A stretch of 64,000 nt of DNA from the sequence record PQ511150.1, one strand, 5' to 3'. A program made the position numbers and the translations under genes. Position 1 is the first letter of the stretch, and every line of letters begins with the position of its first letter. Source of the DNA: Escherichia phage NHEP29. Under the pieces are notes generated by a model. That model searched no databases, had not been told where the DNA came from, and worked only from the letters and a program-made list of their open reading frames with translations. Below are positions 33,686-33,736 of this stretch, piece by piece.

Positions 33686-33736
33686 TTCTCCTCTGGTTGT
33701 TATGGTTATAATATCAAAACCAGAGGAGAAGTAAAC
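33686..33736 (-). promoter_or_regulatory. early promoter inside a 13-bp perfect inverted repeat that contains the SD
   Basis: TTCTCCTCTGGTT (33686-33698) and AACCAGAGGAGAA (33718-33730) flank the TATTAT -10; GTTTAC -35 at 33731-33736 (rc). Confidence 0.5.

Follow-up and report, generated by a model that had tools for sequence, protein, structure and literature searches.

Inverted repeats overlapping two early promoters of Escherichia phage NHEP29 could mask the ribosome-binding sites of read-through transcripts

Introduction

In bacteriophage T4, the genes e, soc, 49 and I-TevI have been demonstrated to carry hairpins that sequester the ribosome-binding site (RBS) and contain an internal late promoter (PMC3014915). 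Here we describe two sites of related layout in a stretch of 64,000 nucleotides (nt) from Escherichia phage NHEP29 (sequence record PQ511150.1), referred to as the window, in which perfect inverted repeats overlap promoters of the early type and include the Shine-Dalgarno (SD) sequences of a motB.2 orthologue, a 174-amino-acid (aa) open reading frame (ORF; site 1), and of a 105-aa ORF (site 2). A preliminary description of this DNA had invoked e and soc as precedents, correctly, and the comparison extends to 49 and I-TevI. At the T4 genes, as here, the hairpin encloses the promoter, and the SD, the AUG or both fall within its 3' arm; the long RNAs fold and are untranslated, and the 5' arm is absent from RNAs initiated at the internal promoter, both of which are predictions for the sites considered here. 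The systems differ in that the T4 genes use a late promoter (TATAAATA), whereas here it is a sigma70-type early promoter, GTTTAC-17-TATTAT, whose spacer constitutes the 5' arm. The timing would also be reversed, with translation in the first minutes only rather than late only; the masked SDs are RegB consensus sites; and the early version is at present a purely computational one. The two sites have a stable helix over the SD and a promoter that, from its predicted start, omits the 5' strand, but not a late promoter; the mechanism is alike, yet they stand outside the late-gene set.

The second related group comprises the stem-loops in T4-type early promoters known as PeSLs, which Arbiol et al. 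(2010) and Comeau et al. (2014) read as terminators or attenuators and as recombination sites that shuffle small ORFs (PMC2839356, PMC4122927). Like sites 1 and 2, PeSLs occupy small intergenic cassettes in which a strong early promoter is combined with a stem-loop between the -35 and -10 or over the -10; they have an SD and an ATG at the 3' end, precede many small early ORFs, and lie beside indels between close relatives. Both of our sites consist of a strong sigma70-like early promoter in a short cassette ending with an SD and an ATG, both match the T4/PST PeSL consensus TTTACW-N17-TAYWAT (PMC4122927), and both have a stable stem-loop within or overlapping the promoter. However, the five published subclasses place the whole stem-loop upstream of the start site with a separate SD downstream, whereas here the 3' arm is itself the SD, and a 3' arm reaching into the leader and SD is absent from all five. 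The T4/PST PeSLs of 2014 have their stem-loop upstream of the promoter, unlike sites 1 and 2 (PMC4122927), and the words 'translation' and 'ribosome' do not occur in the 2010 text.

The third relevant system is RegB, for which the 11-nt RegB/S1 consensus is GGAGRAYARAA (PMC1702504, PMC3014915). Secondary structure inhibits RegB, and resistance to the enzyme is found in most middle and all late RNAs that contain GGAG. In that literature structure figures only as a cause of resistance, and no promoter-dependent structure is described. Searches of the accessible literature, which lacks key older T4 papers, turned up no previous report of an early promoter masking an SD. Valerie et al. reportedly noted in 1986 possible stem-loops before ipIII, ipII, denV and tk.

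Two inverted repeats in early-promoter cassettes

Because the genes concerned are on the minus strand, the features of the preliminary description need to be read on the reverse complement. At site 1, TTCTCCTCTGGTT (33686-33698) and AACCAGAGGAGAA (33718-33730) on the plus strand form the arms of a perfect inverted repeat (13 bp, loop of 19 nt), exactly the repeat around the -10 that had been described at 33686-33730, and one arm does carry the SD GAGGAG of the 174-aa ORF, as had been proposed. The second case had been given as a 12-bp repeat at 46595-46635 ahead of the 105-aa ORF; the location holds, but the perfect arms are 14 bp long (TTCTCCAGTAGTTG / CAACTACTGGAGAA, at 46593-46606 and 46624-46637) and enclose a 17-nt loop. 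In the RNA sense, site 1 reads TAA(motB stop)-agtt-GTTTAC-UUCUCCUCUGGUU-uuga-UAUUAU-aaccauaac-AACCAGAGGAGAA-uaau-AUG, and site 2 reads TAA-GUUUAC-UUCUCCAGUAGUUG-ugu-UAUUAU-agaccuau-CAACUACUGGAGAA-caaa-AUG.

GTTTAC is the -35 consensus of T4/RB69 early promoters (PMC1524935), and GTTTAC-17-TATTAT is present at both sites, in agreement with their earlier assignment to the early type. Measured from the -35, the -10 and the SD, the repeats lie in the same register at both sites: the 5' arm lies inside the 17-nt spacer, the -10 is in the loop, and the predicted start is 2-3 nt ahead of the 3' arm. From the usual distance of seven nucleotides past the -10, transcription would start near 33701 at site 1, and the corresponding position at site 2 would be near 46608. 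Since the 5' arm of site 1 lies within the promoter spacer, it would be missing from RNAs initiated at the site's own promoter. A terminator scan called no intrinsic terminator in the interval that separates site 1 from the early promoter next upstream (35243), and read-through into the site is therefore expected.

The upstream stop codon is only 6 nt from the 5' arm at site 2 and 10 nt at site 1, which raises the question of whether access to the downstream SD depends on a ribosome that ends translation of the upstream ORF and melts the stem, a coupling that would link the two ORFs on polycistronic RNA; the base of that stem is indeed the SD/anti-SD pairing. A terminating ribosome, however, is expected to unwind only about 5-7 nt past the stop codon; this reach would open 0-1 bp at site 2 and none at site 1. 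Coupling would also make the cassette's own strong promoter needless, and we consider this explanation very improbable.

The repeats are far in excess of what would be expected by chance. Perfect inverted repeats with arms of at least 13 bp and loops of 3-40 nt occur twice in the window, at sites 1 and 2, whereas 100 first-order Markov simulations gave a mean of 0.06, and none reached two. Folded in isolation, the hairpin RNAs have predicted energies of -18.7 kcal/mol (z=-5.3) at site 1 and -20.5 kcal/mol (z=-5.7) at site 2, and none of 200 shuffled sequences was as stable. These counts and z-scores, with the test of cognate pairs below, reject a chance origin of the hairpins.

Predicted folding and a model for translational insulation

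The preliminary description had suggested that read-through and promoter-initiated leaders be folded side by side. When this is done, the SD is buried in the read-through form, with an unpaired probability of 0.02 at both sites when 40 nt of upstream context are included, and it is open in leaders that begin at the predicted +1 (0.58 at site 1 and 0.77 at site 2). The own-promoter leaders are near-unstructured, at -0.9 and -1.0 kcal/mol with z about +1.

We propose, with confidence only slightly above even and on computational grounds, that the two sites are translational insulators that would restrict translation of the gene to its own early transcript. In this model each cassette, about 58 nt from the upstream gene's stop codon to the ATG, has a promoter spacer that doubles as an anti-SD. 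RNA polymerase arriving from upstream would transcribe the spacer, then the -10 and then the leader, and the nascent read-through RNA would fold at once into a hairpin of 13-14 bp whose base holds the SD and whose predicted energy is about -19 to -21 kcal/mol, blocking ribosomes from starting the downstream ORF. The transcript from the cassette's own promoter would be without the masking arm and would have an unstructured leader of about 20 nt with a strong, free SD. The gene would then be translated in the first minutes of infection and be silent on the longer delayed-early and middle read-through RNA; the short transcripts would be exposed to inactivation by RegB, and the folded long ones would be neither translated nor cut at that site. 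The preliminary description had likewise proposed a promoter-dependent translational switch; its anatomy and predicted folding stand, while the switch itself is extrapolated from them, the layout is not specific to the window, and the PeSL precedent had been missed.

Conservation, covariation and selection on pairing

Orthologues of motB.2 were fetched by protein similarity only, with structure playing no part in their selection. The SD is masked in all 14 distinct upstream regions, with unpaired probabilities of 0.00-0.02 in read-through RNA as compared to 0.32-0.67 in own-promoter RNA. This masking is achieved by at least five different, non-homologous arm solutions; that of T4 is a two-part helix, and in two lineages the -10 and discriminator pair with the SD and AUG.

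Among cassettes homologous to site 1, the helix is altered on both strands and yet preserved, being TCTGGTT/AACCAGA in the window, TCTAG/CTAGA in ESCO47, and TCATG/CATGA in CLB_P2 and several T-even contigs; the counterpart in Klebsiella phage Phi_KR8 is UUUCCUCGAG/CUUGAGGAGAA, including G-U pairs. The regB cassette helix varies similarly, from TTGACT/AGTTAA in T4 to TAGTTG/CAACTA in Mosigvirus contigs. In an alignment of 14 sequences, the consensus helix comprises 11 pairs; 96.7% of its cells are paired, and both sides have changed in four of the pairs. Its covariation score is 0.305, compared to 0.107 in shuffled alignments (0 of 500 reach the observed value) and at most 0.053 with slid partners, although this set was assembled with prior knowledge of the hairpins and the score is supportive rather than decisive. 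An operator for a dimeric protein is rejected as an explanation of the repeats because the arm sequences differ between the sites and covary.

A broader comparison covered 48 early promoter/gene pairs from T4 and the window, in which the untranscribed part of each promoter was paired with the start region of its own gene or with those of other genes. Cognate pairs have a mean of -8.44 kcal/mol, as opposed to -6.62 +/- 0.31 for non-cognate pairs (p=5e-5), and seven pairs are at or below -16 kcal/mol where 0.38 are expected. A coarser test of start-region masking (-14 to +3) showed no mean shift for promoter-bearing genes (0.48 vs 0.46), so that only individual sites stand out. Within the genus, the 5' arm of site 1 is intact in six of eight sampled Mosigvirus isolates. 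A scan of IMG/VR with 14-mers returned mostly chance matches, with a correctly spaced -10 in 19 of 123.

For site 2, the orthologues of the 105-aa ORF in two T-even-like contigs from IMG/VR (L014 and L018) have the leader CAACTACTGGAGAA, which is exactly the 3' arm, preceded by a terminator and a -10 only and lacking any 5' arm complementary to it. On this evidence the 3' arm may be the more ancient element, an early-leader sequence held in common, to which the Mosigvirus lineage added the masking arm. Taken together, the data from relatives support selection on pairing, as far as sequence comparison can tell.

Site 1 also bears the mark of recombination described for PeSLs. Shigella phage phi25-307 is without motB.2 and has a chimeric motB.2/cef promoter cassette, in which positions 390-455 correspond to 33680-33745 of the window (motB.2 promoter) in the 5' half and to 33095-33160 (cef promoter) in the 3' half. 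The halves meet in the spacer/-10, and 9 bp of SD/anti-SD pairing are retained in the hybrid. The cassette core of site 1 precedes different genes in ESCO47, CLB_P2 and Phi_KR8, and across genera the genes that follow it are unrelated. These observations are what would be expected if the repeats were by-products at the DNA level, either of PeSL shuffling or of template-switch correction perfecting imperfect palindromes, and templated quasipalindrome mutation is classically documented in T4. Recombination alone, however, does not yield a spacer complementary to the SD, and cognate promoter/start pairs are far more complementary than non-cognate ones within the same cassette family. Selection on pairing is indicated by the non-homologous ways in which the arms are built at a single orthologous gene, and loops of 17-19 nt probably make cruciform extrusion unlikely. 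We therefore regard a by-product origin as quite improbable.

Elsewhere in the window, at 21134-21453 on the minus strand, two early-promoter cassettes 319 bp apart are near-identical over a span that begins at the -35, crosses the leader and takes in the first three codons (ATGTCTAAA). The ORFs behind them have 71 and 210 aa, and the arrangement is the type of direct repeat that has been proposed for PeSL deletion and mini-circle formation.

Recurrence of the layout in the window and in T4

A third case in the window precedes a ModA/ModB-like (ADP-ribosylase) gene, where a 5' arm at 39745-39730, which contains the -10, pairs with 39715-39700, which holds the AUG (39707), with a predicted energy of -21.9 kcal/mol. 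T4 modB has the same -10/AUG pairing (TATGATAGCTT / AGGCTATCATG). Folding of the remaining early promoters of the window, about ten in number, revealed no comparable pairing, and several of these non-masking promoters are preceded by a canonical terminator with a GC hairpin and T-run. In T4 (NC_000866), eight early promoters have a spacer or -10 complementary to the SD or AUG of their own gene, with duplexes of -12.8 to -23.4 kcal/mol (Table 1), and the layout is thus not peculiar to the window.

In all, 11 of the 48 early promoters in T4 and the window, or about one-fifth, have strong hairpins. We offer tentatively, with the balance of probability somewhat against it, the generalization that these form a distinct class in which an anti-SD or anti-AUG strand is written into the spacer or -10, and translation would be confined to the gene's own immediate-early RNA. 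Together with RegB they would constitute a hard-wired, protein-free pulse generator, with the long RNAs silent and RegB-resistant at that position, and at least part of the PeSLs would be recast as translational insulators. If so, the pulse generator would serve takeover genes that are perhaps harmful when overexpressed (regB, alc, modB, motB.2); several of the T4 genes with this layout encode host-takeover functions, whose overexpression might be harmful, and the review literature notes that regB expression needs tight regulation. The insulator model, if right, would explain how some early proteins are limited to a short burst despite continued read-through transcription of their genes, why only early transcripts are sensitive to RegB at a given GGAG site, and why stem-loops are conserved in the early-promoter cassettes of variable regions. 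The cassette would then be a portable part of about 58 nt, combining promoter, mask and RBS, that insulates translation from upstream transcription and could be useful in phage engineering.

Apart from the way in which the covariation set was assembled, several findings weigh against translational insulation. The roles published for PeSLs are termination and recombination, and one RB49 stem-loop cut downstream lacZ expression in the manner of a strong terminator. The leader of about 20 nt leaves any hairpin built across the -10 no choice but to involve the SD, and pairing with it could therefore be a by-product. The T4 ipII and ipIII hairpins around the -10 stop short of the SD, and promoter hairpins may have a broader role; we have held our confidence near even on account of these two hairpins and the possibility that the short leader forces SD involvement. 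The promoter closest upstream of site 2 (47077) is also early, which makes the temporal logic less clean than for e and soc and the gain from restricting translation to immediate-early RNA less evident. The SD of the 105-aa ORF is masked in some lineages only, and T-even relatives of this ORF have an upstream terminator and merely 5-6 complementary bases. Finally, two of the eight Mosigvirus isolates have one uncompensated mismatch in the site 1 stem.

The window contains one candidate for the late-gene type as well. The holin t orthologue (219-aa ORF, 17642-18301) is preceded at 17600-17644 on the plus strand by an SD-masking hairpin of the e/soc type, with arms ACCUCUCAAUUAU and UGAUAAAUGGGAGGU, the late promoter TATAAATA in the loop (17615-17622) and the SD GGGAGG in the 3' arm; its predicted energy is -14.6 to -18 kcal/mol, and T4 t is without a comparable fold (-8.1).

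Termination as an alternative

The most direct competing view is that the hairpins are attenuators or terminators of the PeSL type, or stabilisers of the 3' end of the upstream cistron, with masking of the SD incidental to tight spacing. Besides the RB49 result, several observations are consistent with this. The record of phage SA79RD annotates the site 1 hairpin as a rho-independent terminator (a TransTermHP/WebGeSTer prediction); the distances from upstream stop to hairpin given above are short (range 6-11 nt); and the SDs of ipII and ipIII are untouched by hairpins that flank the -10. In addition, an intrinsic terminator lies just upstream of none of the 11 strong-hairpin promoters and of 9 of the 37 others, as expected if the hairpin replaces one, although this is a trend only (Fisher p=0.095). 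The same counts fit a hairpin that takes over a terminator's role as insulator, but they fall short of significance and we make no such claim.

An intrinsic terminator, at least, is rejected on anatomical grounds. The stems are followed by UAAUAUG at site 1 and CAAAAUG at site 2 (the longer tails being UAAUAUGUUA and CAAAAUGAAA), with no U-tract after either (CAAAAUGAAAA follows the stem at site 2); the loops of 17-19 nt are atypical of intrinsic terminators; and the terminator scan calls neither site although it calls canonical terminators nearby, the GC-hairpin and T-run form being found elsewhere in the phage. That the 3' arm is the SD and that a U-tract is absent make a classical terminator role unlikely. 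The termination view also leaves unexplained why the five motB.2 solutions all pair with the SD or AUG, and why the stem covers the start codon in modB and in the variants L189 and L190. We judge it unlikely as the primary role of the hairpins. It is possible that Rho-dependent polarity arising indirectly from a translational block would reconcile the two views.

At four places on the minus strand of the window (47077-47105, 41244-41285, 21453-21490 and 4479-4520), an early promoter directly follows a GC-rich UUCG-type hairpin and T-run and has no SD-masking stem; this is a terminator-then-promoter arrangement, as in the T4/PST PeSLs.

RegB sites within the masked regions

Both masked SDs resemble RegB/S1 targets, lying in early intergenic regions, and site 2 (GGAGAACAAAA) agrees with the consensus at 11 of 11 positions and site 1 (GGAGAAUAAUA) at 10 of 11. 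Known targets similarly have GGAG and an A-rich tract in the SD of early genes, and the T4 counterparts regB, motB.2, nrdC.8 and modB, which have the layout described here, are cleaved in vivo. Because RegB is blocked by structure, the fold may shield the GGAG of long transcripts at these sites while the short early ones stay cleavable. It is conceivable that this shield is the main selected effect, hiding the GGAG in delayed-early and middle RNAs and leaving the short immediate-early RNAs open to cleavage, and the near-perfect consensus matches together with the identity of the T4 targets are in keeping with it. Yet in the variants L189, L201 and L190 the GGAGG is followed by sequence that is not A-rich, and the AUG is buried as well, which points to initiation; the T4 denV hairpin is present even though its SD is RegB-resistant for reasons of sequence; and Durand et al. 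note that cleavage in vivo still occurs at some structured sites, perhaps while the RNA is nascent. We give the shield a small chance of being the principal function; it complements a translational block and does not exclude it.

Genomic context and feature coordinates

At the nucleotide level, the window shares 93-99% identity with RB69-like members of Mosigvirus, a genus in the family Straboviridae. Its genes are on the minus strand almost throughout and include, in order, topoisomerase 39, cef, motB.2, motB, dexA, dda, srd and modA/B, followed further along by dmd, 41 and uvsX. A Pfam search with the two downstream proteins (174 and 105 aa) gave no match and PHROGs placed them in families of unknown function only, so the gene products offer no clue as to function; one RefSeq record does label the 105-aa ORF an ADP-ribosyltransferase. 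A scan of the whole window against Rfam at gathering thresholds found no family.

Table 1. Positions of features at the early-promoter cassettes of the window, and T4 promoters (NC_000866) of genes with the same layout.
Feature	Position	Strand	Remarks
motB-like ORF upstream of site 1	33741..34160	-	stop codon ends 4 nt before -35
Site 1 -35 hexamer GTTTAC, T4-type early promoter	33731..33736	-	sequence and promoter scans
Site 1 5' arm UUCUCCUCUGGUU (anti-SD)	33718..33730	-	13 of 17 spacer nt, directly after -35
Site 1 -10 hexamer TATTAT, TG before it, in hairpin loop	33708..33713	-	sequence and promoter scans
Site 1 3' arm AACCAGAGGAGAA, SD GAGGAG at 33693-33688	33686..33698	-	sequence and folding
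motB.2 orthologue, 174-aa ORF, phrog_1106 (function unknown)	33157..33681	-	start codon ATG 33681, predicted to be masked at site 1
Site 2 -35 hexamer GTTTAC	46638..46643	-	abuts stop codon (46644-46646) of 124-aa ORF
Site 2 5' arm UUCUCCAGUAGUUG (anti-SD), in promoter spacer	46624..46637	-	
Site 2 -10 hexamer TATTAT, in hairpin loop	46615..46620	-	sequence and promoter scans
Site 2 3' arm CAACUACUGGAGAA, SD GGAG at 46598-46595	46593..46606	-	
105-aa ORF, phrog_2110 (function unknown)	46271..46588	-	ATG 46588, predicted to be masked at site 2
modB-like gene, third case	39700..39763	-	early promoter GTTTAC 39763-39758, -10 TATGAT 39740-39735
T4 regB helix	promoter 62797		14 bp including two G-U pairs
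T4 denV helix	promoter 65413		10 bp
T4 nrdC.8 helix	promoter 53943		13 bp
T4 alc helix	promoter 136336		about 20 bp
T4 alt.-3	promoter 123093		layout also there
T4 gene in ndd.4 region	promoter 166807		layout also there
T4 modB helix	promoter 13186		-10 pairs with AUG
T4 motB.2 helix	promoter 8218		two-part
T4 30.8			layout also there

One further repeat lies at 32704-32751 within a 136-aa ORF, where an AT-rich inverted repeat with perfect 12-bp arms (TTAAAATTTTAG / CTAAAATTTTAA, loop 24) overlaps a minus-strand sigma70-like GTTGAC-17-TAAAAT, which may reflect chance or an internal promoter.

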